Shown: positions 5,808 through 55,058 of the stretch, piece after piece | Numbering within the stretch: the stretch's first letter is position 1 | How the letters are laid out: each line of letters begins with the position of its first letter | Source: an uncultured Candidatus Saccharibacteria bacterium | GTDB lineage: Bacteria > Patescibacteriota > Minisyncoccia > Phycocordibacterales > UBA12445 | Assembly (NCBI GenBank): GCA_964531375.1 | Contig: CAZHDO010000002.1 | Span: 21,469 to 85,468 of the forward strand | Length of the DNA stretch: 64,000 bases | Reading direction: 5' to 3' | Program-made: the position numbers and the translations under genes | The notes under the pieces: generated by a model | Databases searched by the model: none | What the model saw: the letters and a program-made list of their open reading frames with translations, nothing else | Told to the model about the DNA's origin: nothing

Positions 5808-6434
5808 ATGTTGAAAAATAACAGAAAAAATCTATTTAAAAATGGTTTTACTACTGCTGAATTACTGGTTGGCATAGCAATTTTTGTTTTTATAGGGATG
5901 GCTGTTAACAAGTTTCAATCTAGTATCTTTTCATCTAGTTCTTATTTACAAGCAAGTCTCAGGACAGAAGATGACGCAAGAAGAATACTTAGAACTATTA
6001 TTTCTGAAATAAGGTCAATGAATTATTCAGCTGTTGGTGGATATCCAATAACCTCCGCAACTGGCAATTCATTTATTTTTTATAGCGACACAAACAATGA
6101 CAATAATACGGAAAGGTTGAGATATTTTATAGAAGGAACGAATCTAAAACGTGGAATTGTGTACCCAACAGGTTCTCCATTTTCCTATGACCTAAATAAT
6201 GAAAAAATATCTATAATTACTTCAAATATAGTAGCCACATCCAGTATTTTTTCTTATTTTAGTGACAGCTATGTTGGTACAGGAATGCCATTACCTGAAC
6301 CCGTAAATCTACCGGATGTAAGATTGATTAAAGTGAGTATTCCGGCCACTATTAAAACAGCCGACGGAAAAATATCGACTTCTTATGAAATTTCAAGTCA
6401 AGTTTCGATTAGAAATCTAAAAGATAATATGTAA
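5808..6434 (+). CDS. Prepilin-type pseudopilin / minor pilin.
   Basis: N-terminus KNG|FTTAELLVGIAIFVFI. Its start is 1 nt after the upstream stop, indicating translational coupling. Confidence 0.55.
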   Translation: MLKNNRKNLFKNGFTTAELLVGIAIFVFIGMAVNKFQSSIFSSSSYLQASLRTEDDARRILRTIISEIRSMNYSAVGGYPITSATGNSFIFYSDTNNDNNTERLRYFIEGTNLKRGIVYPTGSPFSYDLNNEKISIITSNIVATSSIFSYFSDSYVGTGMPLPEPVNLPDVRLIKVSIPATIKTADGKISTSYEISSQVSIRNLKDNM

Positions 6435-14112: not shown

Positions 14113-14733
14113 ATGCTTAAAATAAATAACTTACCCACACCAAAACTGTCTCAAGAGGAAATAATTCATAAAAAAATATCTGTAATCGAAAAAATTCCCA
14201 CCGGGGTTGGTCCAAGGGCTAATGCCATTTTAGTTTTACTTGGCGAAAAACCTGCCGTTGAAATGTATATCCCAGACAAAGAACACGCAGAAAAAGCTGT
14301 TAAAGACTTAAAAGATATTGGACTTTTTGCTGAAATCAGTAAAAAGCCAAGAGTGGGGTTTGACCCGGAAAGCGCAGATGTGCTTATCGCGCGCACTCAA
14401 GAAATTTTGGATGAGTTAAAACAGATTCATCCAAATAAACACCACAGAAGATATGGTGAGTTAATGGGGTATCCACAAACAGCAATCGATGCTTTTCTCG
14501 GAGAGAATGGTGCCGAGATATTACCTGCGGAGGAGCAGGATAAAATGCTAGGTGACATTCCGACTATCTTTAATGGGACTTTTGTTTTTTCCAAAGACCA
14601 CAAAGATGAAGAGTTGGCAGTGGTAAAACACAGAACCAAGCTAATAGCACAAAAAGCCCCAGAACTTTTTTACGACTCGTTCGGAAAAGAGGGTGCTGAT
14701 AAACTTTTAAGTTATATTTTGAATTATTATTAA
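14113..14733 (+). CDS. Hypothetical protein.
   Basis: 206-aa ORF. I recognise no family. Confidence 0.45.
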   Translation: MLKINNLPTPKLSQEEIIHKKISVIEKIPTGVGPRANAILVLLGEKPAVEMYIPDKEHAEKAVKDLKDIGLFAEISKKPRVGFDPESADVLIARTQEILDELKQIHPNKHHRRYGELMGYPQTAIDAFLGENGAEILPAEEQDKMLGDIPTIFNGTFVFSKDHKDEELAVVKHRTKLIAQKAPELFYDSFGKEGADKLLSYILNYY

Positions 14734-32573: not shown

Positions 32574-33185
32574 ATGGAACATACAAAAGAACAAGTAAAT
32601 AATATTTTTCAATCACTACCGGTTGAAATAAAAACTGCAATTTTATCAGTTGAAACCTTTGATTCTATTGTAGAAATATCTCAAAAACACCAACTACACC
32701 TAGACCAACAATCTACACTTGGTCAGGAAACAGGGAATATTTTACTTGGAATCTCTGACCCACTAGATTTCGTGTCAACAATAAGTACAAAACTAGGAAT
32801 TGATAAAAACATAGCCAATCAAATTGTTGGCGAAATAAATGAGAAAATATTTAGTAAAGTTAAAGATTCACTAAGAAATATTCACAACGCTGCAAATAAG
32901 AAAGAGGTTCCAGTAAGTCCTGTGCCAGTTGCACCAAACCTTATTAAAAATACCGAAACACAAAATTTGAATGTTCCACAAAAAACATTAGATGTATTAC
33001 AAGGGAAGGGGGTTGTCACAGAACAAAAACACGACACAAGTATTCTCGGATTTTCAGTAGAGAAAATTGCCGACAAACCAACTAACATTCTAAGCCAGAA
33101 AATGAACGGAAGCTTCAATATGCCAAAAAACGAAACAGAAAATGGAACACAGAAAATAACAGATCCGTACTTAGAAAGTATATAG
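32574..33185 (+). CDS. Hypothetical protein.
   Basis: 203-aa ORF in the cluster, followed by an intergenic repeat element. Confidence 0.45.
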   Translation: MEHTKEQVNNIFQSLPVEIKTAILSVETFDSIVEISQKHQLHLDQQSTLGQETGNILLGISDPLDFVSTISTKLGIDKNIANQIVGEINEKIFSKVKDSLRNIHNAANKKEVPVSPVPVAPNLIKNTETQNLNVPQKTLDVLQGKGVVTEQKHDTSILGFSVEKIADKPTNILSQKMNGSFNMPKNETENGTQKITDPYLESI

Positions 33186-34361: not shown

Positions 34362-35015
34362 ATGGCGAATAAAAGTACACAAGATTTCGTTCCGGTAGAC
34401 AAAATACATGATGGAATAGTTGTTCTGAAAGATGGGACAATGCTTGTTGTTTTTATGTGCTCGTCTTTAAATTTCGCGTTAAAATCAGCCGACGAACAGC
34501 AGGCTGTAATAATGCAATATCAAAATTTCTTAAACTCGCTAGATTTCACTGTTCAAATACTTGTTCAATCAAGAAGGCTTGATATTAAGCCATATTTAAA
34601 CTCTCTCAACGACAGAATGAGCTTGCAATCAAACGACCTACTTAAAATACAACTAAAAGAATATATTAACTTCATAAGAAATTTCACAGAGGGGGTTAAT
34701 ATTATGGAAAAATCTTTTTATGTTGTGGTTCCATATCAGCCAATGACTTTTATACAGCCAGGTAGTACAAGTAGCGGAATACTGTCTTCGATAACTGGGT
34801 TTTTTGGTAAAAGCGAAAACAAAATGGCTGAAAAGAAACAAGAATTACTTACCTTTGAAGAGAATAGAAGCCAGCTGGAACAAAGAGCAGGAGTGGTATC
34901 ACAAGGCCTCAGTAGGACAGGTGTTAGGACAGTCGCGCTAGGTACCGAAGAATTAATCGAACTTTTTTACAGAATATTTAACCCAGAAGACCAAGGTGGT
35001 GTGCCGAAGGTGTAG
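34362..35015 (+). CDS. VirB4/TraC-family conjugal-transfer ATPase, N-terminal domain fragment.
   Basis: VPVDKIHDGIVVLKDGTMLVVFMCSSLNFALKSADEQQAVIMQYQNFLNSLDFTVQILVQS matches the VirB4 N-terminal domain of Gram-positive systems (PrgJ/TcpF/Orf16-like). It ends 125 bp, and one frame, away from the ATPase ORF. Confidence 0.5.
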   Translation: MANKSTQDFVPVDKIHDGIVVLKDGTMLVVFMCSSLNFALKSADEQQAVIMQYQNFLNSLDFTVQILVQSRRLDIKPYLNSLNDRMSLQSNDLLKIQLKEYINFIRNFTEGVNIMEKSFYVVVPYQPMTFIQPGSTSSGILSSITGFFGKSENKMAEKKQELLTFEENRSQLEQRAGVVSQGLSRTGVRTVALGTEELIELFYRIFNPEDQGGVPKV

Positions 35016-36943: not shown

Positions 36944-37009
36944 GAGGGGTAAGTATTTAGTATTAGGTATTTGGTATTTAGTATAAAAATACACAATACA
37001 AATAAAAAA
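36944..37009. repeat. GTATTTAGTAT-family repeat element.
   Basis: TAG-gaggggtaagtatttagtattaggtatttggtatttagtataaaaatacacaatac. Confidence 0.7.
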
Positions 37010-37609
37010 ATGCCAGAAGAAAATACGCCGACATTAGACAAAGCAGACTGGTTAAGCCTTTATCTCGTGGCCATTTTTTTTGATGTTATGGGCTGGTTGA
37101 TGGCTTTTGTGGATATTTTTTTGTTAGGGTGGGGAGGGTTCTTTTTAAATCTTTCTGGGGGGGCCACTTTCTCACTTTGGTTAGCAATCTGGAAAGACAA
37201 ATTCGGTGGTTTTGGTAAAATATCAACGACGTTTATAATTGTTTTTCTTTTAGAAGCAACCCCTATTGTGGGCGATGTTTTACCACTTTGGACTGGCATG
37301 ATTTACAGGTTACAAAAAAATCACGAAAAAAACCTAATGGGTACAATAACAGGCACCATCAAAGACAAAGCAACAAAAAAGAAAGAGCAGGACGAGAGAA
37401 GAAAAAAAGAGGAGGACGAAAAAAAGAAAAAAACAGAAGAAGATGGAAGAAGGGAAGAAGAAAGAAGAGAACAACAAAGACAAAAGGAAATGGATGAGAA
37501 GAAAGCAGAAAGACTGGAAAATGGAAAAAGTAGCCAAAATGAAAAGGAGGTAGGTGAAAATAAAAATGAGGGTCTGGAAGAAGCCCAACCTGCACAACAA
37601 GTAGAATAA
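37010..37609 (+). CDS. Small polytopic membrane protein with a Lys/Glu/Arg-rich cytoplasmic tail.
   Basis: ATG at 37010 (MPEENTPTL). Three or four TM helices, then a KKEQDERRKKEEDEKKKK tail. The ORF-track start at 36971 is a TTG inside the repeat element, and I reject it. Confidence 0.4.
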   Translation: MPEENTPTLDKADWLSLYLVAIFFDVMGWLMAFVDIFLLGWGGFFLNLSGGATFSLWLAIWKDKFGGFGKISTTFIIVFLLEATPIVGDVLPLWTGMIYRLQKNHEKNLMGTITGTIKDKATKKKEQDERRKKEEDEKKKKTEEDGRREEERREQQRQKEMDEKKAERLENGKSSQNEKEVGENKNEGLEEAQPAQQVE

Positions 37610-40905: not shown

Positions 40906-41622
40906 CTAAATACTCTTCGCCTTTTGTTTTACGTATAACTCGTGGGCGATACCGAAGAGGTTACTTGTTATCCAGAACACAGAGACGGCTGCATTTAGTT
41001 TTGAGGCGATATAAACAATAAAAACGGGCAAGAAATACTTAACCTGCCAATTCATACTTTGTGCAAAATCATCGGCAAAAGAAGACTCTTTTCCTTGGCT
41101 CTTTGGAAGGTCAGGAACGGAGAGTTTGGTTTGAAAAAACTGTGTAATCCCAACCAAAACCGCTAAATAAAAATTGCTTGTAGCCATTTCTATAAATCCC
41201 AAAAACATAGTGTTTACTGTGGATGGAATTATATTAAATGAGAATATTACAGAAGAGGTAAGGTCTATTTTTTCGCTAAAAATATAATAAAGAGCTATAA
41301 ACATCGGCAATTGAATAAATAAAAGCAAAATAGTAGAAAATGGATTTATTCCATGTTCCTTATATAGATTCATTGTTCTGATGGCCTGCTCTTCTTGATT
41401 ATCCTTAAATTTTTCTTTTATGTTCTTTATATGTGGCTCAATTTCTTTCATTTTCTTCTGAGTCTCAAGTGATTTGTGAGAAAGGGGGAGTATTACGATC
41501 TTTGAAAATATCGTTAAAAGAACAATTGCGATACCAATATCGTTGTTTGGGACAATTGCACTCAAAAATATAATAAGATTATATAGGGGGTAATAAAAGA
41601 TGTTAAAAATAAATGAAAACAT
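40906..41622 (-). CDS. yidC: Membrane protein insertase YidC (short form).
   Basis: GIAIVLLTIFSKIVILPLS...QKKMKEIEPHIKNIKEKFKDNQEEQAIRTMNLYKEHGINPFS is the YidC/Oxa1 core. Confidence 0.8.
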   Translation of the reverse strand: MFSFIFNIFYYPLYNLIIFLSAIVPNNDIGIAIVLLTIFSKIVILPLSHKSLETQKKMKEIEPHIKNIKEKFKDNQEEQAIRTMNLYKEHGINPFSTILLLFIQLPMFIALYYIFSEKIDLTSSVIFSFNIIPSTVNTMFLGFIEMATSNFYLAVLVGITQFFQTKLSVPDLPKSQGKESSFADDFAQSMNWQVKYFLPVFIVYIASKLNAAVSVFWITSNLFGIAHELYVKQKAKSI

Positions 41623-41730
41623 AAGTTATGTATTTAGTATTAAGTATTTAGTATACAGTATTGGGTATTTAGTATACAAGAAGTATTAAGTATTATGTAT
41701 ATAGTATACAAAATACTTAATACCCAATAC
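41623..41730. repeat. GTATTTAGTAT-family inverted-repeat element between rnpA and yidC.
   Basis: gtatttagtattaagtatttagtatacagtattgggtatttagtatac ... atacttaatacccaatacctaatacttattactaaatacc. Confidence 0.75.
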
Positions 41731-42078
41731 CTAATACTTATTACTAAATACCAGAAGCCTCCTAAGCAAAAGGGTAATCTCATTCTCCAATTCTGCAAAT
41801 GACAACTTAGTAACACCCGGCTTGGCAAAAAAAGACAACGTTAAACCATCCTTAATAAGAGGCAGGTTCTTTTTTATTATATGTCGACACCTTCTTTTAA
41901 AAAGGTTCCTTTCTGTGGCTTTTTTGGCTACTTTACTAGATATAACAAAACCAAAGATACTTTTTCCTTGTCTATTGCTTAGGTATTTAACAGAAAGAAG
42001 GGGGGAAAAGGCCGATTTTCCCTTTTTTAGAAGCTCCTCGAAGTATTCTTTCTTAATTCTTCTTGTTTTATCTAACAT
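41731..42078 (-). CDS. rnpA: Ribonuclease P protein component.
   Basis: The basic RNR motif region KKATERNLFKRRCRHIIKK. Position between rpmH and yidC. Confidence 0.7.
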   Translation of the reverse strand: MLDKTRRIKKEYFEELLKKGKSAFSPLLSVKYLSNRQGKSIFGFVISSKVAKKATERNLFKRRCRHIIKKNLPLIKDGLTLSFFAKPGVTKLSFAELENEITLLLRRLLVFSNKY

Positions 42079-42197
42079 ATCTTAAGAGTATTATATTTAT
42101 GGCTCATTGCCAAACGTTTTCAGCTAAACACCCTAACTATACTTATTAAATAAAAATTACGAATTTTTGAGTTCGTAATTTTTATTTTTTTATTATT

Positions 42198-42332
42198 TTA
42201 AACTGTTAGCTTTGCTCTTCCTTTTCTTCTTCTCCTTTGAATGGTTTTTTTACCTCCAGGAGTAGCTTGTCGGACTAAAAATCCGTGTGTTTTATTCCTT
42301 TTTCCTTTTTTTGGTTTATATGTCTTTGACAT
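42198..42332 (-). CDS. rpmH: 50S ribosomal protein L34.
   Basis: A 44-aa ORF, too short to appear in the ORF track: MSLTYKPKKGKRNKTHGFLVRQATPGGKKTIQRRRRKGRAKLTV, which is canonical L34. Confidence 0.8.
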   Translation of the reverse strand: MSKTYKPKKGKRNKTHGFLVRQATPGGKKTIQRRRRKGRAKLTV

Positions 42333-42650
42333 TCCGCTACATTATCACAAGAGGCCTAAAGTGTAAAGTGTCAAAAACACAGTTAGGAAAATCTCATAAA
42401 ATAAAAGCTGGTTTATGTTTTTTCCCTTTACATTTTTATTTTAAATAGTTATCCACACCTAAACCACCTATTATATTTGAAACAGTCTAGTTTCTTTTTC
42501 AAAAGCAAAGAATATAATTATCTTATAAAAATTCAAAAAATAATTTACGTACCGAGCCACAGCATAAAAAAATAAAAAGAAACACCTATAAACAAGAAAA
42601 GATAATTTGGTCGAGAAGGATATATTATAAATTTTTATTTGATACGGTAA
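42333..42650. promoter_or_regulatory. oriC region (rpmH-dnaA intergenic) with a DnaA box.
   Basis: A perfect DnaA box TTATCCACA at 42449-42457, in the AT-rich spacer between divergent rpmH and dnaA. Confidence 0.6.
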
Positions 42651-44039
42651 ATGTCTGACAACAAAAAAATCTGGGACAGCGCTTTAGGGGAGATAGAGAT
42701 GGACGTCTCCAGAGCAAATTTTAGCACTTGGTTTAAAAATACATTTATCGCGAGAGAAGAAGATGGCAATATATATCTTTCTGTACCAAACGCTTTCGTA
42801 AAAGATTGGCTTTCAAATAAATATCACAAATTTATACTAAAGGCATTAAGAAATGTTTCCCCAAACACAAGAAATGTTGAATACATTATCCAAAAAGAAG
42901 GAACAGTTGTAAAAGAACCATACAGCAATCTAACAACTGAGCAAAAAACGACAGTAAGTCAGCTTAAACTAAACGAACCTTACGTAAATAGAGAGGATAA
43001 TCTTAATCCAAAATACATTTTTGAAAACTTCATCGTTGGACCTTTCAACGAACTAGCTTTTGCTGCCTCTCAATCGGTCATAAAGAGGCCTGGCGTGGAT
43101 TATAATCCTCTTTATATATACGGAGGAACTGGACTCGGTAAAACTCACCTTATACAAGCAATCGGCAATTCACTAAAGAAGGCTGGCGCTAGGGTTTTCT
43201 ACTTAACATCCGAAAGATACACTGTCGAACTTGTAAGCGCAATGCAAAACAATACGATTAATTCCTTTAAAGAGAAATATAAAAAATACGACACGCTTAT
43301 AATAGACGACGTTCAGTTCTTTGGAGGTAAAGACAAAACTCAAGAAGAAATCTTCCACCTCTTTAATGATTTTTACAACAACAATAAACAAATTGTTTTC
43401 TCATCAGACAAGCCACCGAAGTTCATACCAAATCTTGAAGAAAGACTTAGGTCGCGCTTCGAAGGTGGAATGACTGTGGATATCTCTAGACCAGAATATG
43501 AATCTAAGATCGCTATTCTTCAAACAAAACTAAAAGTTATGAATTATGCTTTGTCTGATGAAGCTCTTCAATTCATAGCATCTAATGTTCAAGAAAGCAT
43601 TCGAGAACTTGAAGGTGTTTTAAACTCTGTAATATGCCAGTCTCAACTTAAGAACAGAGAAATAAATATTCAAGAAATAAAAGCTCTCATAAAAAATAAT
43701 ACCAGACAGCAAAAAACAATTTCCTTTAAAGATATATTAAGAATAATTGCTGACTACTATAATATTGAGGAAAAATTCCTATACGAAAAGACCAGAAGGA
43801 GGGAAGTGGTAAAACCAAGGCAAATTGCTATGTACATCTTAAGAGAAGATCTTAATTCTTCTTATCCATATATAGGACAAAAATTCGGTGGCAGAGACCA
43901 CACCACAGTTATACACGCCTGTGAAAAAATAAAAGCTGATTTAAAGGAAAATGAAGCCTTACTACGAGAGATAGAAGAAATTAAAACCTTATTATTCGGG
44001 TCTGAAAACAAATCCCCAATTCTAGCTGGAAGTTGTTAA
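42651..44039 (+). CDS. dnaA: Chromosomal replication initiator DnaA.
   Basis: Walker A GGTGLGKTHL, box VII and sensor motifs, and the C-terminal DNA-binding domain KFGGRDHTTVIHA. Confidence 0.9.
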   Translation: MSDNKKIWDSALGEIEMDVSRANFSTWFKNTFIAREEDGNIYLSVPNAFVKDWLSNKYHKFILKALRNVSPNTRNVEYIIQKEGTVVKEPYSNLTTEQKTTVSQLKLNEPYVNREDNLNPKYIFENFIVGPFNELAFAASQSVIKRPGVDYNPLYIYGGTGLGKTHLIQAIGNSLKKAGARVFYLTSERYTVELVSAMQNNTINSFKEKYKKYDTLIIDDVQFFGGKDKTQEEIFHLFNDFYNNNKQIVFSSDKPPKFIPNLEERLRSRFEGGMTVDISRPEYESKIAILQTKLKVMNYALSDEALQFIASNVQESIRELEGVLNSVICQSQLKNREINIQEIKALIKNNTRQQKTISFKDILRIIADYYNIEEKFLYEKTRRREVVKPRQIAMYILREDLNSSYPYIGQKFGGRDHTTVIHACEKIKADLKENEALLREIEEIKTLLFGSENKSPILAGSC

Positions 44040-44270
44040 TTAACTGTGGATAAAAACAAGTTTAAGTTGTGGGTAAACCGTGGAGAAAAGAGGTGATAAA
44101 AAAGGGGTACAATTAACCACAGATGGACAGCAAAATTACAGTACGATAATCCACAGAGAAAAAAATAGATTACCTTTAAAATAAAAGATATAATTAAGTT
44201 ATACACTTATCAACAGTCCTAATAGTAATAATAAACTTTTATATATAATTATTTAAATAAATAAAATCCT
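44040..44270. promoter_or_regulatory. DnaA-box cluster (dnaA-dnaN intergenic; second half of oriC).
   Basis: TGTGGATAA at 44045-44053, TGTGGGTAA at 44068-44076, TTAACCACA at 44112-44120, TAATCCACA at 44146-44154. Confidence 0.6.
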
Positions 44271-45371
44271 ATGAAAGCAGAATGTTTAAAAAACAAACTT
44301 AAAGAAGCAGTCTTCCAAGTAGGAAAAATATCTGGTAAGAATTTATCATTACCAATTCTTGAAGCAATACTTATTGAAGCTAAAGAAAATGAAATTATTT
44401 TAAAGGCAACAAATCTAGATATCGGTTTGGAAGTTAGAATTTCTGCTAAAGTTGAGAGGGAAGGGGCTGTTGCTGTTCCAGGATATTTGATAGCTGGTTT
44501 TATACAGATGCTAGAGGGAGATACTGTCGTTAAATTAGAATCGGTTAATAATAACCTTTCTGTTTCTAGTAAGAAAAATTCTACATTAATTAAAAGTTAT
44601 CCTGCGGATGAATTTCCTTTGATTCCAAGAGTTGAAAAAGAGGAGTCGTTTTTTATTGAGGCATCTAAGATAATTAACGGTATAAAATCAGTTTCTTTTG
44701 CAGCTCTTGCTTCTGATATAAAGCCTGAGATTTCAAGTGTGTATATGTATTTTGATAATGGTTATTTATATTTTGTTTCAACAGACTCCTCTAGGCTGGC
44801 AGAAAAGAAGTTTGAGATAAACAAAGATGCTAATTTTTCTTCTTCTATAATTCCAATAAAAAATGCTAACGAGCTGGTTAGAATATTAGAAAGTACAGAA
44901 GGGGATGTGGAACTTATTTTTAATAAAAACCAGATGTCTGTAATTTCATCTTCAGTTTATTTTACATCAAGAGTTGTGGGTGGAATTTTTCCTGATTACA
45001 GACAAATAATTCCAAAAGATAAAAAAACAGAAGTCATTGTGCAAAAACAAGAGTTGGCAGATTCTATAAAAATGTCGACTATTTTTTCTGATAAATTTAA
45101 TCAAATAAATTTTAAAATAATTCCAGCAGATGGTTTTTTTGAGATAAGCTCTAGAAATCAAGACAAGGGGGAAAGTGTTACGAGAATAGATTCGACTTTA
45201 AAAGGGGAGGATATTGATATGAGTTTTAATGCTAAATTTATTTTAGATTCCATTGCTTCTGTTCAGGATAATAATATAACCATAGATTTTAATGGACACC
45301 AAAGACCAGTTATAATAAAAGGTGTTGGTGATAATTCATTTACATATCTGTTAATGCCGATGATAAAGTAG
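44271..45371 (+). CDS. dnaN: DNA polymerase III beta sliding clamp.
   Basis: 366 aa directly after dnaA. N-terminus KNKLKEAVFQVGKISGKNLSLPILEAILIEA is the beta-clamp pattern. Confidence 0.85.
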   Translation: MKAECLKNKLKEAVFQVGKISGKNLSLPILEAILIEAKENEIILKATNLDIGLEVRISAKVEREGAVAVPGYLIAGFIQMLEGDTVVKLESVNNNLSVSSKKNSTLIKSYPADEFPLIPRVEKEESFFIEASKIINGIKSVSFAALASDIKPEISSVYMYFDNGYLYFVSTDSSRLAEKKFEINKDANFSSSIIPIKNANELVRILESTEGDVELIFNKNQMSVISSSVYFTSRVVGGIFPDYRQIIPKDKKTEVIVQKQELADSIKMSTIFSDKFNQINFKIIPADGFFEISSRNQDKGESVTRIDSTLKGEDIDMSFNAKFILDSIASVQDNNITIDFNGHQRPVIIKGVGDNSFTYLLMPMIK

Positions 45372-45722: not shown

Positions 45723-48248
45723 CTATATGGCTACTTTGAATGGAATAGTCATTTCTTCTGAGTTTCTTATGCTGTCGTAAATAATAACTTTGATTTCATT
45801 ATTGTAATCTATTTGTGGAATCTCTTTTGGTAAGAAATTAAAATTAAAAGGAGGGTTTTTTGAGGAACCAATAAAAGTGTTGTTTATGAAGAAGTCAGCT
45901 TGTACGACAGGGTAGGTGGTTTGTGTTACTTGTAAATTTATATTTACTGTCTCGATTAAGCCGTATGTCCTATTTCTATCTGGTAATAGTATATTTAATT
46001 TTGGTGCAAGACTTGGTCCGTGTACATTATCTAGACCAGTGGGTGCTGTCGTTGTTCCACTGCTTTGTAATCCTTGTATTTCCGCCCATTTTTTAATTGA
46101 GGTTTCCCAGTTGTTAAATTGTGGGTCACTCCAAGGGTCTGTCGGCGCTGGTCCAAGTGGGTCTTTCTTGTCTACCCAATATAAAATTGAATGTACATCG
46201 GTTAAAACCTTCTTTTCTTTAAGTTCTTCTGGTGTGTAAGGTGTTGCTAAATTTCCAGAGGCTTTGTCGATTGTGTATTCAACACCTCCACGCCATTCTC
46301 CACGAAGAACTGGTTTAATATCTTCTGGGATTGGGTCAGGTTTTTTGAAATTTTCAACAGGCAGTGTCTTGAGAACCTTGTCGAAGAAGTTTCTCCATAG
46401 CGGTGCTGTTATCATTCCTGCTACTTTTTTAACCATAGGTGAGTTGTCATTGTTTCCTACCCAAACTCCCATTGCGAAATTTGGTGTGAATCCTATAACC
46501 CAAGCGTCTTTTGTGTCGTTTGTTGTACCTGTCTTTGACGCAACTTGCCTGTCGTCGAACCTGAGAGGGGAGTTTTCTCCATATGCAGGAAGTTTTGCAT
46601 GGTAATCAGAAAGTACATCAGAAATTTCTCGTGCAACATTTGTTTCCAGGACTTTTATTCCATTGTTAGAATATTCTTCAAGAGTTTTTCCTGTCGAATC
46701 TGTAATTTTAAGAATAGGAGTATATGGATTTCTTATACCATCATTCGCAAACACAGAATAAGCGTTCGTCATATCTAGTAAAGTAACCTCTCCGCCTCCT
46801 AATACAAGCGTCAGTCCATATTGGGTGGCATTTGTGAGTCCTGTTATTCCAAGGTCTCTTGCTGTTCTTATAGCGTCGTTTATGCCGACTAGATAAAGAA
46901 GTTTTATGGCGGGTATGTTTATTGACTGAGCTAATGCGTTTCGAAGCGACATTGGCCCCCTAAAACTATCATCATAGTTTTGTGGCATGTAGCAGACGTT
47001 GGGATTATTGTTTGGTGGAATTGGATTTCCGTCTGGGTCACAGTTTGCTTGAAATTCTGTTTCTAAATCAAAAAGAACTGTGTCTGGTGTATATCCTTTT
47101 TTAAAAGCTGTCGCATAAACAAAGGGTTTAAAAGAAGATCCTGGTTGCCTATGTGCAAGAGTAACGTTAAAGTTGCCTTCATTTTTTGTATTGAAGTAGT
47201 CCCTTGAACCAACCATCACTAATATTTGTCCTGTCTTTGGATCTGTTGCTATTAATCCAGCATTTTTAGCCTTAAAATCTTTCTCATTTTTATCGCCGAA
47301 TTCTTTTATTGTTTCTTCAGCTTTTTGTTGAAGGTCGTAGTCAAGGGTTGTTATTATGTTTAAACCTCCAGTTTCAACTTCCTCTCTTCCGTATCTGCTT
47401 TCAAGGTAACTTCTTACAAACTCCACAAAGTGGGGTGCTTTAATACCACTATCATCTTTATTTTTATTAAACACAACGACTTCTTTTTTTGCGCTATCAA
47501 GTTCGTCTTTCGATATAAGCTTCAGTTCATACATTCTATTGAGAACTGTGTTTTTTCTTTCGTCTAGTTTTGTTTTGTTCTGTCCATAAGGGGAGTACAG
47601 GGTTGGTGCTTGTGGAATCGCAGCTATGTAAGCCGCCTCCGCCAAAGTAACATCGCTTGCTTTCTTATTGAAAAATCTCTGTGTCGCTTCTTCAACTCCA
47701 TAGACTGTTCCTCCGTATGGTGACTCGTTTAAATAAATAGAAAGTATCTGTTGTTTACTTAAAACTTTGTCTAGTTTTAAAGCTAATATCCATTCTGTTA
47801 TTTTTCTTGTTACACTTTTTTCTTGAGTTAGAAGCGTGTTTTTTATAACCTGTTGGGTTATTGTAGAGCCACCTTGGACAGCTCCGCCTTTCGTTAAATT
47901 CACCCAAACCGCTCTTATTATTGACTCTATTTTTATACCATTATGAGTGTAGAAATCAGAATCTTCTATCGCGATTGTTGCTTTTTGAATATATGTTGAG
48001 ATGTTTTCAAGAGGAACAACGCGTCTTTTGATGTCTTGGTGAATATCATATAGGAGAATTTTTCCTGTACGGTCGTATATTTTTGTGGATTGGGAAATTT
48101 TCCTCTTATCAAAAGAACCAAAATCAGGGATTTTTAAGTTGGCCATCCAAATAAGGATAATTCCCGCAAAAAAGAAAAAAAATATGGCCAAAACCATAAT
48201 TATCCTTATAGATTCATGTTTTATTGTCTTAAAAATCTTCCTTTTCAC
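45723..48248 (-). CDS. Class A penicillin-binding protein (PBP1A; transglycosylase plus transpeptidase).
   Basis: GT51 motifs EDSDFYTHNG and GGSTITQQ. Transpeptidase motifs SSFKP and KTGTT. 841 aa with an N-terminal TM anchor. Confidence 0.85.
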   Translation of the reverse strand: MKRKIFKTIKHESIRIIMVLAIFFFFFAGIILIWMANLKIPDFGSFDKRKISQSTKIYDRTGKILLYDIHQDIKRRVVPLENISTYIQKATIAIEDSDFYTHNGIKIESIIRAVWVNLTKGGAVQGGSTITQQVIKNTLLTQEKSVTRKITEWILALKLDKVLSKQQILSIYLNESPYGGTVYGVEEATQRFFNKKASDVTLAEAAYIAAIPQAPTLYSPYGQNKTKLDERKNTVLNRMYELKLISKDELDSAKKEVVVFNKNKDDSGIKAPHFVEFVRSYLESRYGREEVETGGLNIITTLDYDLQQKAEETIKEFGDKNEKDFKAKNAGLIATDPKTGQILVMVGSRDYFNTKNEGNFNVTLAHRQPGSSFKPFVYATAFKKGYTPDTVLFDLETEFQANCDPDGNPIPPNNNPNVCYMPQNYDDSFRGPMSLRNALAQSINIPAIKLLYLVGINDAIRTARDLGITGLTNATQYGLTLVLGGGEVTLLDMTNAYSVFANDGIRNPYTPILKITDSTGKTLEEYSNNGIKVLETNVAREISDVLSDYHAKLPAYGENSPLRFDDRQVASKTGTTNDTKDAWVIGFTPNFAMGVWVGNNDNSPMVKKVAGMITAPLWRNFFDKVLKTLPVENFKKPDPIPEDIKPVLRGEWRGGVEYTIDKASGNLATPYTPEELKEKKVLTDVHSILYWVDKKDPLGPAPTDPWSDPQFNNWETSIKKWAEIQGLQSSGTTTAPTGLDNVHGPSLAPKLNILLPDRNRTYGLIETVNINLQVTQTTYPVVQADFFINNTFIGSSKNPPFNFNFLPKEIPQIDYNNEIKVIIYDSIRNSEEMTIPFKVAI

Positions 48249-50286: not shown

Positions 50287-50781
50287 TTATTTTGCAAGCC
50301 CCCTGTATGTTGCAAGACCTGTTAGTGCCATCCCAATGGCATCGAATTCATCATCTTCAACCTTTTTCTTGTCGATTGTCTTCCAATTTTTGATTAAAAA
50401 CGGGATCATCTTAGAAACCTGGCTTTTTTCAGCCTTACCGTAACCAACAATAGCCATTTTCATTTGGAGTGGGGTAAATTCAAAAACCTTTAGGCCATTT
50501 GCCATTGCAATATATGTCGCCATTCCCTTGGCTTCTGATACTCCCATGGCAGTTTTCTGATTAGTCGTAAAAAAAAGCTTTTCTATAGCCAGAGCTTGGG
50601 GTTTAAATTTATCGATTAGGGTTTGAAATTCTTTTCCTATTGAAAGAAGCCTTTCACTAAATGTGGTTTTTGCCGAAGTTCTAATACACCCAGAATAAAG
50701 TAATTCATCACCACCGCTTTGGTTGTCGACAACAGCGACACCAAACTTGTCATATCCAGGATCAACTCCGATAATTATCAT
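50287..50781 (-). CDS. ruvC: Holliday-junction resolvase RuvC.
   Basis: MIIIGVDPGYDKFGVAVV...ALAIEKLFF...DEFDAIGMALTG carries the catalytic-residue contexts. The ORF opens 27 codons further upstream, but the conserved start is at 50781. Confidence 0.8.
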   Translation of the reverse strand: MIIIGVDPGYDKFGVAVVDNQSGGDELLYSGCIRTSAKTTFSERLLSIGKEFQTLIDKFKPQALAIEKLFFTTNQKTAMGVSEAKGMATYIAMANGLKVFEFTPLQMKMAIVGYGKAEKSQVSKMIPFLIKNWKTIDKKKVEDDEFDAIGMALTGLATYRGLAK

Positions 50782-50804
50782 AAAAAATGATTTAAGATTT
50801 ATTT

Positions 50805-50890
50805 TGTCATCCCGGACTCGATCCGGGATCCAGGATTTATTTAGTTTATATTTAAAATACAATGGATTCCGAGTCGAGCCCGGAATGACA
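50805..50890. repeat. GC-rich imperfect inverted repeat (two hairpins) in the yebC-ruvC intercistronic region.
   Basis: tgtcatcccggactcgatccgggatcc ... ggattccgagtcgagcccggaatgaca. Each arm also folds on itself. Confidence 0.5.
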
Positions 50891-50900
50891 GGTGGAGTTA

Positions 50901-51461
50901 TTATTCAGCTGACTCTTCTTCGGATGATAGGTTTGAAATATTTGTGAAAATATTTTCCACATCTTCGTGGTCGTCAATTATGCCAAGTAAGGTTTCTAGT
51001 GCTTCCTTGTCTGTAGGGGAGACTTCCATTGGCATTGTTGGTACCCACTCATCGTCCTTTTTTTCAAAAGCCCAAGTTACAGAACCTTCTCCGCCAAGTG
51101 TTCCTCCATGGTCAGATAAAATGTGTTTTATTTCAGGAGTCATTCTGTTTTTGTTGTCTGTAATTCCTTCAATAATAATAGCAGCTCCGCCTGGCCCATA
51201 AGCTTCATATTTTACATTCTGCATTTCTGAGCCGCCAACACCAAGTCCTTTTGCGATTGCCCCATCAATTTTATCGTTTGGCATATTAACCTCTCGCGCC
51301 TTCTCGATCATTTTTCTTAGTGAAGGAGAATTTCTATCTCCCTTTGCCGTTCGAGATTCCACGATTAATTTCTTGGCTAAAATAGCAAAAGCCTTACTTT
51401 TCTTCGCATCATTAATACCTTTTTTAACTTTTATTTTTGAAAATTTATTATGTCCTGACAT
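50901..51461 (-). CDS. yebC: YebC/PmpR-family transcriptional regulator (short form).
   Basis: MSGHNKFSKIK...LRKMIEKAREVNMPNDKIDGAIAKG...YEAYGPGGAAIIIEGITDNKNR is the YebC signature. Confidence 0.75.
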   Translation of the reverse strand: MSGHNKFSKIKVKKGINDAKKSKAFAILAKKLIVESRTAKGDRNSPSLRKMIEKAREVNMPNDKIDGAIAKGLGVGGSEMQNVKYEAYGPGGAAIIIEGITDNKNRMTPEIKHILSDHGGTLGGEGSVTWAFEKKDDEWVPTMPMEVSPTDKEALETLLGIIDDHEDVENIFTNISNLSSEEESAE

Positions 51462-51589
51462 ATTTTTTGCAAATTAAAATTATTAATTAGAAGTTATCTA
51501 TTAATTTAGACGTTTCTCTTATTATATTATAAATAATACCAAATTAGTCAACGATAGAAACTTTACCCATCTGATGTATAATACAAAGT

Positions 51590-54022
51590 ATGCAAAACAT
51601 GGAAAATTTTAAACCAAAACCAAAAGAAGAATTAAAAGCACAATTAGGGCAAGTTGCAGAAAAAGTAGGAAATCGTCTTACTCCAGAATCGCAAAATGGT
51701 GGATTGCTGAGTATGACTATTGATGAGATTAAGAATAAATTTCCTTTAAGATATGATATATATCGAAAACTTTTGATTTCTCAAAAAAATAAAACAGAAA
51801 TTGACGAGAAAGAAATTTCAGAAATGAAAACATGGCTTACTGCATTAAATAATCTAGATAAATATATAGAAAATCACAAAGACAATGAAGCTGGTCGTAC
51901 TTTAAGAGAAAGACAATTTACAGTGTTCGAAGCGATTCGTGATTTCTTAGAAAGGGGCGAGAAAGAGGGATATATAAAACTACCAACAGGGGCGGGAAAA
52001 ACAGTTATTTTCTCAGAATTAATCGAATCTCTTCGATTAAAGACGCTGGTTGTTGTTCCGACGCAAATACTTGTTGAACAAACAGGCAAGGAGATCGAGA
52101 AATTTACAGAAGATCTTGATATTGGAAAGATATATACTTATGCGAAGAATCATGGCGATGATGTGACAATTACAACCTATTCATCTTTAATAAATAAAAT
52201 CAAAGATGGTTCGATAAACCCAAAAGACTATAAATGCCTTATTCTCGACGAGGCCCACAAGGCACTTAGCGAAAAAAGAATAGAATCAATTAGTGGTTTT
52301 GATGATGCTATTAAATTGGGTTTTACAGCAACTCCAGAATATTCAGAAGATAAAAATGTAGCTAAATTATTAAGTAAAGAAATATGTTCTCTTTCGATTA
52401 AAGAAGCCGTTAAAGAGAAAGTTTTAAGTGGTTTTTCGGTTTATCTTGTCCAAACAAATATTGATTTGAGTGAAGTGAAAGTCACCTCAACAGGAGAATA
52501 TAATCAAGAGGACCTCGAGAGAGCGATTAATAAGGAGGCGAGAAATAAGGCAGGTGTGGATGTCTACCGAAAGATGTTTGATGGTGAAAGAGCAGTTGTT
52601 TATTGTTGCGGTGTGGCCCATGCAGAAAATATGGCACGGCTATATAACGAGCAAGGTATTTCTGCTAATTTTGTTTCTGGAAAACAAGGTAAGACAGAAA
52701 GAGAGCAAATTTTAAATGATTTCAAGGAGGGAAAGATTAAGGTTCTGTGTAATTCTGATATTTTAATTGAAGGTTTTGATGAGAAGAAAGCGAGTGTCTG
52801 TATTAATTTAAAACCAACATTATCAAAAATAGTTGCAGAACAAAGAGCCGGGCGAGTATTAAGGATAGACGAAACTAATCTAGACAAAATAGGCAGAATT
52901 GTTGATTTTGTTGATGTTTATGATCAAGGCCGTGGTGGTATTTCATTTGCAGATATCGTAGGTGAGGCCGAGGTTTATCAAGAAGAAAAAGAAAAGAGTG
53001 GTGCTGATAATGGTAACGAAACAGAACAAAGCCGAAATATTAAAATTAGGGAAGATATTAAGCTTGAGTTTAAAATTATAACTGAGGCTAAAGAGGTAGT
53101 GCGGATTTTGAGTGAAACTGGCTTGTTGATAGATAAAGAAAAAATAGAACATTTGCCTTTTGAAGAGTTAAAAAAAGAGGTTCAGGTTTTAAAAATAAAA
53201 GATTTTATTGAATATGAAAAAAAGAGAAAAGAAAACCATCCAAATTGGATGAGTTCCGGTAATTTACGTAGACAAAAAGGATGGAAAAATGCAGATGATT
53301 TTTTTGGTAGAGAAGTTGTAGAATTCCTATCTTTTGAGGATACTAAAAAAGAAGTTCAAAGTTTGGGAATTAAAACAAGAATCGAATATAAAAAAGAGAA
53401 AAAAGAAAACCATCCAAAATGGAGATGTTTTTCTGATTTAAAACATGAAAAAGGATGGAAAGGTGCGGATGATTTTTTCGACAGAGAAGCTGTAAAATTC
53501 TTATCTTTTGAGGATACTAAAAAAGAAGTTCGGGGTTTGGGAATTAAAACAAAAAAAGAATATGAAAAAAAGAGAAAAGAAAACCATCCAAACTGGAGAT
53601 GTTTTTCTGATTTAAAACATGAAAAAGGATGGAAAGGTGCGGATGATTTTTTCGACAGAGAAGCTGTAAAATTCTTATCTTTTGAGGATACTAAAAAAGA
53701 AGTTCGGGGTTTGGGAATTAAAACAAAAAAAGAATATGAAAAAAAGAGAAAAGAAAACCATCCAAACTGGAGATGTTTTTCTGATTTAAGCAAAGAAGAA
53801 GGGTGGAAAAGTTCATATGATTTTTTTAATAAGGAACGAAAAGAATTCTTATCTTTTGGGGATACTAAAAAAGAAGTTCGGGATTTGGGAATTAAAACAA
53901 TTACTGAATATGAAGAAGAAAGAAAAAAACATCCAAATTTGAGGAGCTATATATCATTAGTTGATCAAAAAGAATGGAAAGGTTGGGATGATTTTTTAGG
54001 AAGAGGTAAAAAAGAATTCTAA
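51590..54022 (+). CDS. Superfamily-2 DEAD/DEAH-type helicase (ResIII-like) with five tandem 58-aa C-terminal repeats.
   Basis: Walker A PTGAGKTV, DEAH box LILDEAHKA, and motif VI QRAGRVLR. From about aa 520 the protein carries five repeats of the form FLSFEDTKKEVRGLGIKTKKEYEKKRKENHPNWRCFSDLKHEKGWKGADDFF. Confidence 0.7.
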   Translation: MQNMENFKPKPKEELKAQLGQVAEKVGNRLTPESQNGGLLSMTIDEIKNKFPLRYDIYRKLLISQKNKTEIDEKEISEMKTWLTALNNLDKYIENHKDNEAGRTLRERQFTVFEAIRDFLERGEKEGYIKLPTGAGKTVIFSELIESLRLKTLVVVPTQILVEQTGKEIEKFTEDLDIGKIYTYAKNHGDDVTITTYSSLINKIKDGSINPKDYKCLILDEAHKALSEKRIESISGFDDAIKLGFTATPEYSEDKNVAKLLSKEICSLSIKEAVKEKVLSGFSVYLVQTNIDLSEVKVTSTGEYNQEDLERAINKEARNKAGVDVYRKMFDGERAVVYCCGVAHAENMARLYNEQGISANFVSGKQGKTEREQILNDFKEGKIKVLCNSDILIEGFDEKKASVCINLKPTLSKIVAEQRAGRVLRIDETNLDKIGRIVDFVDVYDQGRGGISFADIVGEAEVYQEEKEKSGADNGNETEQSRNIKIREDIKLEFKIITEAKEVVRILSETGLLIDKEKIEHLPFEELKKEVQVLKIKDFIEYEKKRKENHPNWMSSGNLRRQKGWKNADDFFGREVVEFLSFEDTKKEVQSLGIKTRIEYKKEKKENHPKWRCFSDLKHEKGWKGADDFFDREAVKFLSFEDTKKEVRGLGIKTKKEYEKKRKENHPNWRCFSDLKHEKGWKGADDFFDREAVKFLSFEDTKKEVRGLGIKTKKEYEKKRKENHPNWRCFSDLSKEEGWKSSYDFFNKERKEFLSFGDTKKEVRDLGIKTITEYEEERKKHPNLRSYISLVDQKEWKGWDDFLGRGKKEF
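53150..54000 (+). repeat. Five tandem 174-bp repeats within the helicase gene.
   Basis: The period is 174 bp. Copies 3 and 4 (about 53501-53674 and 53675-53848) are nearly identical at the DNA level. Confidence 0.8.
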
Positions 54023-54026
54023 TTTT

Positions 54027-55058
54027 TTAGAGTAAGCTATCTTTAGGTGGTTCAATATTTAGGTGTTCGTAAGCTTTTGTTGTAGCGGATCGGCCTCTTG
54101 GGGTTCTTTCGATGAAGCCAAGTTGTATTAAATATGGTTCGTTTACTTCTTCTACGGTGCCGACTTCTTCGGATATTGCAGCGCCGATTGTGCCGAGGCC
54201 GACTGGTCCACCTCCGAACTTGTTGATTATCGTGTCGATTATTTTCCTATCGACGATGTTTAGGCCTGCGTGATCTATGCCAAGGAGGTCCAAAGCCTTA
54301 CCAACTGTCTTTCTGTTCAATACAACCTCTTTTACCTGAGCGAAATCCCGACATCTTTTTAGTAGGTGATTCGCGATTCTCGGGGTAAATCTACTTCTTC
54401 TTGAAATTTCTTCGGAGGCTTCTTTTTCTATTTCAACGCTGAGTATCTTTGACGAACGTTCGATAATTTTTTCAATTTCTTTTTCTGTATAAAATTCTAG
54501 TCTGAAAGTTCCACCCGAAAATCTTGAACGGAGGGGGGAAGAGAGGAGTGCTATTTTGGTAGTGGCGGCGATAAGTGTGAATGGTGGGAGTTCAAGTTGA
54601 ATTGTTCTCGCTGACGGACCTTTGCCGATTATGATATTTAAAATTCCCGACTCCATTGCAGGATAAAGAACCTCTTCGATCATCTTGTTGAGGCGATGAA
54701 TTTCGTCGATAAATAAAATATCTCCCGGTGAAAGGTTTGTGAGGAGGGAAGCGAGGTCGCCAACTTTCTCTATCGCAGGACCTGATGTGATTTTAATCTG
54801 AGAATTGTTTTCTTTGGCAATTAAATGTGCCAAAGTTGTCTTTCCAAGTCCAGGAGGCCCATAAAAAAGCAGGTGTTCTGGTGGTTGTTTTCTGGACTTG
54901 GCAGCATCGAGTAAAATCTTCAAATTTTCCTTAATTACCTCCTGTCCAATATACTCTTCCCATCGCTCTGGTCTGAGCGTACTGTCAAGAAATACCTCGT
55001 TTTTTTGAGGGTTTTGGTCATTCTCTTGTACTTCATTTTCTGGTGGTATACTTGACAT
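54027..55058 (-). CDS. ruvB: Holliday-junction branch-migration helicase RuvB.
   Basis: LRPERWEEYIGQE...LLFYGPPGLGKTTLAHLIA...DEIHRL is the RuvB AAA+ pattern. Confidence 0.9.
   Translation of the reverse strand: MSSIPPENEVQENDQNPQKNEVFLDSTLRPERWEEYIGQEVIKENLKILLDAAKSRKQPPEHLLFYGPPGLGKTTLAHLIAKENNSQIKITSGPAIEKVGDLASLLTNLSPGDILFIDEIHRLNKMIEEVLYPAMESGILNIIIGKGPSARTIQLELPPFTLIAATTKIALLSSPLRSRFSGGTFRLEFYTEKEIEKIIERSSKILSVEIEKEASEEISRRSRFTPRIANHLLKRCRDFAQVKEVVLNRKTVGKALDLLGIDHAGLNIVDRKIIDTIINKFGGGPVGLGTIGAAISEEVGTVEEVNEPYLIQLGFIERTPRGRSATTKAYEHLNIEPPKDSLL

Follow-up and report, generated by a model that had tools for sequence, protein, structure and literature searches.

The 64,000-nucleotide stretch of DNA analysed here, which we call the window, is part of contig CAZHDO010000002.1 (positions 21,469 to 85,468) in the assembly GCA_964531375.1 of an uncultured Candidatus Saccharibacteria bacterium. 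Between ruvB and yebC-ruvC it carries a gene for a superfamily 2 (SF2) helicase whose C terminus is built of tandem repeats. The protein consists of four parts, namely an N-terminal domain, the SF2 motor, a linker and five repeats of 58 amino acids (aa) that span residues 521-810. The features of the gene are listed below in window coordinates, with the basis of each assignment in parentheses (pI, isoelectric point; pLDDT, predicted local distance difference test).

51555..51582, forward strand: promoter-like site TAGAAA-16-TATAAT, 10/12 matches (consensus scan only)
51590..54022, forward strand: helicase gene, 810 aa plus stop (open reading frame list)
51590..51898, forward strand: family-specific N-terminal helical domain, aa 1-103, motif ALNNLDxYI (71-sequence alignment, AlphaFold2)
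51899..52339, forward strand: RecA-like domain 1, ResIII (Pfam, invariant motif columns)
52580..52867, forward strand: RecA-like domain 2, Helicase_C, with motif VI QRAGRVLR at 52835-52867 (Pfam)
52925..53149, forward strand: acidic linker, aa 446-520, pI 4.7 (pI, pLDDT, alignment)
53150..53323, forward strand: INT_rpt-like unit 1, aa 521-578 (relatives' profile, E 8e-19)
53324..53497, forward strand: INT_rpt-like unit 2, aa 579-636 (relatives' profile, E 1.6e-17)
53498..53671, forward strand: INT_rpt-like unit 3, aa 637-694, the extra unit (relatives' profile, E 2.5e-18)
53672..53845, forward strand: INT_rpt-like unit 4, aa 695-752 (relatives' profile, E 1.5e-17)
53846..54019, forward strand: INT_rpt-like unit 5, aa 753-810 (relatives' profile, E 5e-21)
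53420..53789, forward strand: perfect tandem duplication, 2.13 copies of a 174-bp period, no mismatch (self-comparison)

NCBI lists an identical 810-aa protein, encoded on one 118,759-bp contig. Homologues begin with MEGF or MENF, and translation may start at the alternative Met4 (51599) rather than at the listed start codon. The promoter-like site lies directly before the helicase start, inside the 128-bp spacer that separates the gene from the divergent yebC. The N-terminal domain has no Pfam match; AlphaFold2 predicts helices at aa 12-26, 44-67 and 73-98 with pLDDT of about 90, and R54, Y58, L86, N87, L89, D90, Y92 and I93 are nearly invariant in an alignment of 71 sequences. Both halves of the motor are recognized by Pfam, ResIII matching aa 104-250 with 102 bits (cut-off 22.5; DEAD, 52.8 bits) and Helicase_C matching aa 331-426 with 61.2 bits (cut-off 23.5). 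The first domain holds motifs Q (LRERQ, 51902-51916), I (PTGAGKT, 51980-52006), II (DEAH, 52241-52261) and III (TATP, 52319-52339), and in the same alignment G134, K137, T138, D220, E221, H223 and T248 are invariant, as are Q418, R419, G421, R422 and R425 in the second domain. All of the catalytic motifs (Q, I, II, III and VI) are intact in the window protein, and the motor is of the DNA-repair or restriction type. The gene product is probably active as an ATP-dependent helicase or translocase of DNA, of the ResIII/DEAH type within SF2. Within the linker, a small conserved strand-helix element occupies aa 488-516 (family consensus IxGLxVIxDxxEVMRI); it is modelled as a strand at 495-497 and a helix at 500-515, and pLDDT falls below 50 on either side, at aa 472-486 and 512-519.

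By sequence, the closest relatives in the PDB are XPB (3e-19) and RadD (1e-12), and a Foldseek search with the full-length model also placed the motor nearest to XPB and RadD, with E values of about 1e-15 to 1e-16. Archaeal XPB/Rad25 and bacterial RadD, the closest solved structures, have the ResIII-type RecA1, the DEAH motif and Helicase_C in common with the window protein, but the identity is 21-24% and confined to the motor, the N-terminal domain and tail being unrelated. Neither name can be given to the protein, as it scores 75.8 bits against the cut-off of 610 for XPB/Rad25 (NF045503) and 98 bits against the cut-off of 720 for RadD (NF053632), in both cases over the motor only. A zinc-finger cysteine cluster of the RadD type was not seen; among the nine cysteines (aa 216, 266, 339, 340, 387, 404, 613, 671 and 729) only the pair at 339-340 falls within four residues. 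The identity of a DEAD-box RNA helicase was likewise rejected, with motif II being DEAH and DbpA scoring 52 bits against a cut-off of 524. SauUSI-type type IV enzymes and PbeA have a similar motor (PADLOC, 1e-22 to 1e-24; 7clg, 3e-14) and the same layout of a motor plus a C-terminal recognition module, but the window protein is devoid of a PLD or other nuclease domain, of an SRA-like domain and of partner genes. As no nuclease family matches the protein and its neighbours are ruvB and yebC, this identity was rejected as well. The DEAD/DEAH helicases of siphophages (PHROG_16; phiadh, CL2) possess a homologous motor with 27-32% identity but neither the N-terminal domain nor the repeat array, and phage records cover at most 58% of the query. 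On the basis of these comparisons, in which the equivalog tests failed and a nuclease is lacking, the window protein should not be classed with XPB, RadD, DbpA or the SauUSI-type enzymes.

The repeat array bears the marks of very recent change. Tandem Repeats Finder detects just one array, which runs from 53210 to 53937 with a period of 174, 4.2 copies, 87% matches and a score of 995, and the reading frame contains five contiguous in-frame units of 58 aa (53150-54019). At the nucleotide level, units 2 and 3 are 93.7% identical, units 3 and 4 87.9% and units 2 and 4 81.6%, whereas unit 1 is about 70% identical to units 2-4 and unit 5 only 48-62% identical to the others; unit 5, which is nearest to the family consensus, is the oldest. 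Comparison of the array with itself at an offset of 174 revealed an exact run of 196 nucleotides (53420-53615 = 53594-53789), which shows that one 174-bp period was duplicated without any later substitution. Unit 3 is exactly chimeric: it equals unit 4 over the first 118 nucleotides and unit 2 over the last 78, and this is the product that would be expected of a single unequal crossover or slippage event. A shorter form of 752 aa (NCBI MEI6296772.1, "MAG: DEAD/DEAH box helicase [bacterium]"; MAG, metagenome-assembled genome) is encoded on two other contigs, L001 and L002, which are fully syntenic with the window, share 99.5-99.7% nucleotide identity with it over 11-12 kb and belong to the same species. 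This form equals the window protein minus exactly one 58-aa period and is otherwise identical. The unit count is five in one assembly and four in the two others, and the perfect duplication is absent from L001 and L002.

The four-unit form of L001 and L002 could also be a collapse made by the assembler rather than a strain polymorphism. The exact repeat of 196 nucleotides exceeds typical de Bruijn k-mers and is about the size of a short read, both four-unit contigs carry SPAdes-style names and loop collapse is common. However, two independent assemblies share the four-unit form, and the 27-43 substitutions per 11-12 kb by which the three assemblies differ mark three separate populations. We therefore regard an artefact as possible but doubtful. 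Even if the four-unit contigs are collapsed, the perfect duplication in the window is a very recent expansion; assemblers create a spurious extra copy far less often than they collapse a repeat. An antisense open reading frame of 145 aa within the array (53356-53793, reverse strand) shows the repetition too; it mirrors the 174-bp period and gives no sign of being a gene.

Because scans of the tail and of single units against Pfam, PHROG and NCBIfam gave no meaningful match, the homology of the repeat was demonstrated via relatives (homologues are cited here by P numbers, retrieved contigs and loci by L numbers). Seven relatives (P0002, P0003, P0004, P0007, P0010, P0024 and P0036) exceed the gathering score of PF14882 INT_rpt, the "Integrase repeat unit" formerly named PHINT_rpt, with 110 bits for P0004, 75 bits for P0003 and 65 bits for P0002. 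A profile built from 185 repeat units of 44 relatives, with the window species left out, matched all five window units over the whole 56-position model (E 5e-21 to 1.6e-17), indicating that the window repeats are divergent INT_rpt units. They have in common with that family a tandem pattern of about 55 aa, FLSxEEhxxxVxxxGIxSxxEYxxxxKxHxxWPSxPxxxYxxxWxGWxDFLG. When a two-unit profile was run against 1.84 billion representative proteins, 4244 matched at E <=1e-3 and 731 at E <=1e-30, with the arrays lying at the N terminus, internally or at the C terminus. Among the 60 strongest array proteins, Pfam recorded INT_rpt in 41, ResIII in 11, Helicase_C in 9, Integrase_2 (PF13009) in 8, Mrr_cat and PASTA in 3 each, and PDDEXK_4 and HHH_RecD2 in 1 each. 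Besides helicases, the partners of the repeat thus appear to be mostly DNA enzymes, that is, putative integrases and Mrr/PD-(D/E)XK nucleases. In the literature that we found, PF14882 occurs only in domain lists, without a function, and nothing concerns the helicase family.

These results bear on an initial annotation of the locus, which had been made from the letters alone. It had described an SF2 helicase with five C-terminal 58-aa repeats, and here Pfam and the repeat analysis agree and the repeat consensus matches; its proposal that the array expanded very recently is borne out by the perfect 174-bp duplication and by the two same-species assemblies that encode the protein minus one unit. 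The statement that such W/GW-containing repeats follow helicase or methylase cores holds for the helicases, which are among the partners, but not for the methylases, which are not among the partner domains of the 60 strongest proteins. It had also considered that the repeat might match a known domain with a housekeeping role. The repeat does belong to a catalogued family, PF14882, but INT_rpt is not a housekeeping domain.

A two-unit AlphaFold2 model, built on an alignment of 59 sequences, reached a mean pLDDT of 91.4 and a predicted template modelling score (pTM) of 0.58. Each modelled unit has two helices of 10-11 residues and, after them, two short ones, and the pTM suggests that the units behave as loosely coupled beads. 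In the full-length model (pLDDT 88.5) all five units are confidently folded, and the array is predicted to consist of five independently folding helical modules. It is basic (pI 9.3, net charge +14), whereas the core has a pI of 5.5. When the two-unit model was searched against BFVD, the best matches were SF2 helicases of giant viruses (Bodo saltans virus, Terrestrivirus and Klosneuvirus; A0A2H4UVX6, A0A3G4ZSX7 and A0A1V0SLK7). The structural scores are weak (E 0.025 to 0.6; template modelling score about 0.45), the comparison was by structure only, and the matches hint at the same helicase-plus-repeat architecture in Nucleocytoviricota.

The window protein belongs to a large family, of which more than 1680 homologues were found among 8000 candidates scored. 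Their source names are almost all Patescibacteria (Kerfeld-, Magasanik-, Pace-, Levy- and Daviesbacteria), and one record is labelled Nanoarchaeota. Outside its own species, full-length identity to the window protein does not exceed 52%, and core identity to P0002 is 70%; P0002 through P0017 align over the full length, with 39-52% identity and 98-100% coverage, and P0019, which is NCBI-sourced and 55% identical to the window protein, belongs to an unrelated assembly. The hallmarks of the family are an N-terminal helical domain of about 100 aa, a motor with invariant motifs, the linker element and a C-terminal array, and the window protein has them all. To compare the tails, we used the 120 nearest relatives and the window protein, a set of 121. 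A tail array is present in 110/121: arrays of the INT_rpt type occur in 46/121 (1-11 units, mostly 4-6) and arrays of a different, 66-aa repeat in 65/121 (1-10 units), one protein that bears both types being counted twice, and the remaining tails (11/121) are of other kinds. The consensus of the 66-aa repeat is APEGW..LA..LG.S..TIKK.AEKYR..HPEWFK......G...E.YSPELV, and its carriers include P0042, P0051, P0053, P0055, P0062, P0082, P0083, P0086, P0099, P0105, P0111, P0119 and P0120. It collectively and weakly matches HTH_29, HTH_28, HTH_23 and similar helix-turn-helix (HTH) families, and no dedicated Pfam family was seen for it. Sister helicases with this repeat (for example, P0053, P0086, P0105 and P0111) share the N-terminal domain, linker and motor with the window protein (49-63% core identity) and carry their array at the same C-terminal position, with a copy number of 1-10. 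They differ in the type of the repeat (PEGW...HPEWF...EHYSPEL), for which there is a marginal profile link to INT_rpt: in hhalign, positions 1-35 of INT_rpt aligned with the HTH portion of this repeat with P = 5e-4 and a probability of 32%.

On average, the cores in all three tail classes are about 54% identical to that of the window protein. The nearest core neighbour has the same tail type in 93/121 cases, with 14 INT/HTH mismatches, which indicates that the tail type is mostly inherited and now and then swapped. Units are also more alike within a protein than between proteins (mean identity 49% vs 32%), and for 87/179 units the nearest unit lies in the same protein; therefore, arrays expand or homogenize independently in each lineage. 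The window array is one of the more recently active.

The helicase gene is set within a conserved group of genes, on the strand opposite to theirs:

50287..50862, reverse strand: ruvC (Pfam)
50901..51461, reverse strand: yebC, divergent from the helicase gene (Pfam)
54027..55058, reverse strand: ruvB, convergent with the helicase gene (Pfam RuvB_N, AAA_lid_4, RuvB_C)

The stop codons of the helicase gene and ruvB are 4 bp apart. A RuvB-based scan of species-representative genomes yielded 80 loci from MAGs of the Paceibacteria type (Vogel-, Yonath-, Nomura- and Paceibacterota), the closest RuvB being 85% identical. The order polA-tsaE-pilB-ruvB-yebC-ruvC-tyrS is widely kept among these loci, with pilB-ruvB-yebC-ruvC conserved. 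In 73 informative loci we could read how far ruvB lies from yebC or, if yebC is missing, from ruvC; the distance is below 200 bp in 38/73, 449-566 bp in 3/73 and 0.6-6.2 kb in 32/73. The inserted genes are mostly unrelated to one another. They include a type ISP/IIG restriction-modification enzyme (L084:5827-8922), an N6_N4 methyltransferase-Mrr fusion (L061:9348-10847), HTH-SocA/Panacea antitoxins (L050 and L084), an extra pilB (L012), glycine-rich secreted proteins (L015, L048, L068 and L071), a periplasmic binding protein and a glycosyl hydrolase. Unrelated cargo in 32/73 species marks the ruvB|yebC junction as an accessory-gene hotspot, whose cargo in the window species is the helicase. 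No functional link between the helicase and the ruv genes is demonstrable.

The view that the helicase had been inserted on the opposite strand into a ruvB/yebC/ruvC locus is therefore well founded, as the gene order is kept in the 80 related species and the helicase is present at the site in none of them (0/80). An ancestral arrangement with a stable repeat number does not fit either, since the number of units is unstable (1-11 family-wide). The absence of ruvA from the locus, which the initial annotation had also pointed out, was confirmed for the window: a tblastn search with an approximate Escherichia coli RuvA query gave no match in the window or across 1.7 Mb of loci, and a Pfam scan of the ten window open reading frames of 170-220 aa found none. 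However, no ruvA adjoining ruvB was detected in any of the 80 loci, so that a locus without ruvA is the norm of the lineage and has no bearing on the helicase. An association of the window copy with a mobile element found no support, as the helicase is a lone gene in a hotspot, with native GC (guanine plus cytosine) content and without an integrase or transposase nearby.

The contexts of homologues elsewhere are diverse. Some lie beside housekeeping genes, others have a serine recombinase (L088), a small terminase (L089) or TraG/TrwB (L004) nearby, and copper-resistance genes and methyltransferases also occur, S-adenosylmethionine-dependent methyltransferases twice. A gene for superoxide dismutase lies immediately downstream and convergent in two cases, one of the Fe type (L004:10593-11192) and one of the Cu type (L005:9463-9933), and a copper-resistance cluster (CsoR-like repressor, Cu-ATPase, DsbD_2 and cupredoxin) lies immediately upstream in two others (L170:740-4709 and L172:1175-5390). 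These recurring neighbours may reflect the shared ancestry of close relatives, or coincidence. A metagenome scan with the family alignment gave, among the matches listed, mostly phage-type helicases of about 30% identity, and it was not used for context statistics.

Several other features of the window were recorded. YebC is usually about 240 aa long. The window YebC has only 186 aa, the same length as in L001, with the Pfam match to its second and third domains split in two, and part of the usual protein seems to be missing. A replication-origin cluster with yidC-rnpA on the reverse strand and dnaA-dnaN on the forward strand lies at 40906-45371, about 6 kb upstream of the helicase gene, and was annotated via contig L001. 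A class A penicillin-binding protein (Transgly and Transpeptidase; 45723-48248, reverse strand) is a single gene in the window and in L001 but is split into genes of 603 aa and 189 aa in L002 (L002:4134-6608); the split is due to a frameshift or pseudogene in one of the populations, or else to faulty assembly. Six open reading frames of 203-217 aa on the forward strand (2021-2653, 5808-6434, 14113-14733, 32574-33185, 34362-35015 and 36971-37609) have no Pfam match at E <=1e-3; uncharacterised proteins are common in Patescibacteria.

We propose, with a probability of roughly 0.6, that the helicase is an SF2 DNA motor tethered by a multivalent, fast-evolving and probably DNA-binding array, and that it is carried as accessory cargo of the hotspot. 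The five INT_rpt units would bind nucleic acid multivalently, most likely DNA, and the array would thereby tether, target or anchor the motor. Its length and sequence would evolve fast through unequal recombination or slippage between the 174-bp units, and such changes may tune the interaction with nucleic acid. Binding of DNA by the repeats is suggested because the array is basic, the alternative tails of sister proteins are HTH-like and the partner domains are those of DNA enzymes. The biological role of the protein could lie in repair, restart, defence or the handling of mobile DNA.

Several observations weigh against this proposal. The INT_rpt model matches neither the whole protein nor its tail nor single units, even at E <=10 (gathering threshold 26.5 bits). 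The window units have lost the WPSxP prolines of the consensus, with W-R-C-F-S-D-L in their place, and this loss is probably why they fall below the Pfam threshold. The kinship between INT_rpt and the HTH repeats is suggestive and no firmer than that, and DNA would be preferred over RNA as the ligand solely because the closest helicases act on DNA. The repeat partners are not solely DNA enzymes, as PASTA, an extracellular domain, is found in 3/60 of the array proteins. Finally, no neighbouring gene is conserved across 14 contexts (the window and 13 of homologues), and a pathway cannot be inferred from them.

Among the alternatives for the role, the strongest is defence: the protein would be the sensor or motor of an anti-phage or restriction-type system, and its array a fast-evolving module for target recognition. 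Its strength comes from the hotspot cargo and the PADLOC similarity: the core matches PbeA (2.5e-24) and a type IV methyl-directed restriction enzyme (3.4e-22), the PDB matches include SauUSI (7clg), and the hotspot of relatives carries the type ISP/IIG enzyme, the methyltransferase-Mrr fusion and SocA/Panacea antitoxins. Fusions of INT_rpt arrays with Mrr and PD-(D/E)XK nucleases also occur, and rapid turnover of the array would fit an arms race. However, the helicase itself is without a nuclease domain and the 14 contexts share no partner gene. The PADLOC matches are confined to the generic motor, where RadD (98 bits) and XPB match at least as well, and the variability within recent arrays resembles general surface variability rather than a discrete code. 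We therefore consider a defence function unlikely.

That the helicase serves the replication or recombination of an integrated mobile element or a prophage remnant is rather improbable. The protein matches the PHROG_16 'DNA helicase' at 2.8e-77, its core is 27-32% identical to DEAD/DEAH helicases from siphophage replication modules, the repeat bears an integrase-derived name, and some relatives lie near the serine recombinase, small terminase and TraG/TrwB genes mentioned above. In the window, however, the gene stands alone, as integrase, transposase and phage genes are absent from both flanks within 10 kb, and its GC content of 30-37% is native-like against the window mean of 35%. A scan of viral contigs with the protein returned one distant match at 21% identity and no close relative, no phage record covers the tail, every match is below 60% identity, and most homologue contexts consist of ordinary chromosomal genes. 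No insertion scar was definable, the spacers being AT-rich and unalignable to those of three relatives, and the adjacent genes, flanking repeats and composition did not identify the window copy as mobile-element cargo.

We give little credence to an RNA helicase that is tethered by its array to structured RNA, in the manner of the C-terminal domains of DbpA/YxiN or CsdA. NCBIfam does report DbpA (4e-14), CshA and others, many DEAD-box structures appear in Foldseek at about 1e-12, and a basic tail would also suit RNA binding. Motif II, however, is DEAH within a ResIII-type architecture, and in sequence as well as in fold the better scores go to XPB and RadD, which are DNA enzymes. Elsewhere the repeat is joined to DNA enzymes, and the alternative tails of sister proteins look HTH-like.

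A more ambitious possibility, which we regard as a long shot, is that the arrays form a modular, re-assorting specificity device whose units read DNA features and diversify in number and sequence under conflict with phages or other mobile DNA, the helicase being a programmable surveillance motor. The hints come from the occasional tail swaps between closely related cores and from the places where units vary. Within recent arrays, differences cluster in two places: positions 19-20 and 23, which flank the invariant Tyr22, lie where the second and putative recognition helix begins, and positions 35-39 lie in the loop after the invariant Trp32. This variability tracks family-wide entropy, so surface exposure alone may explain the pattern. 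If true, such a device would give the INT_rpt fold a DNA-recognition function.

The weakest rival, a partner of RuvB/RuvC that acts as a RadD-like or RuvA-replacing accessory factor of branch migration, can draw on RadD as the best NCBIfam match (4e-28) and a top structural match and on the position of the gene next to ruvB in a window without a detectable ruvA, but it is very improbable and largely refuted by the missing synteny, as all 80 related species keep ruvB-yebC-ruvC without the helicase or a detectable adjacent ruvA, homologues lie in unrelated contexts, the RadD equivalog cut-off is far off and the gene, on the opposite strand, is not co-transcribed.

In summary, an array-tethered DNA motor carried as accessory cargo remains our preferred reading of this gene. 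Both of its building blocks, the SF2 ResIII motor and INT_rpt, are catalogued, and the protein has already been deposited as a "DEAD/DEAH box helicase"; it is an ordinary member of a large uncharacterised family and does not represent a new kind of system. Current knowledge is not overturned, nor is a long-standing question opened, and the value of the analysis lies in annotation and in the generation of hypotheses. The array provides a clean natural example of the growth of a tandem protein repeat, in the form of a 174-bp unequal-crossover product between near-identical strains. In addition, our results draw attention to a family of more than 1680 helicases with interchangeable arrays of small helical modules, to INT_rpt itself, which is found in 4244 representative proteins, mainly on DNA enzymes, and has no confident structural relative, and to the ruvB|yebC junction as a hotspot of variable genes across Paceibacteria.

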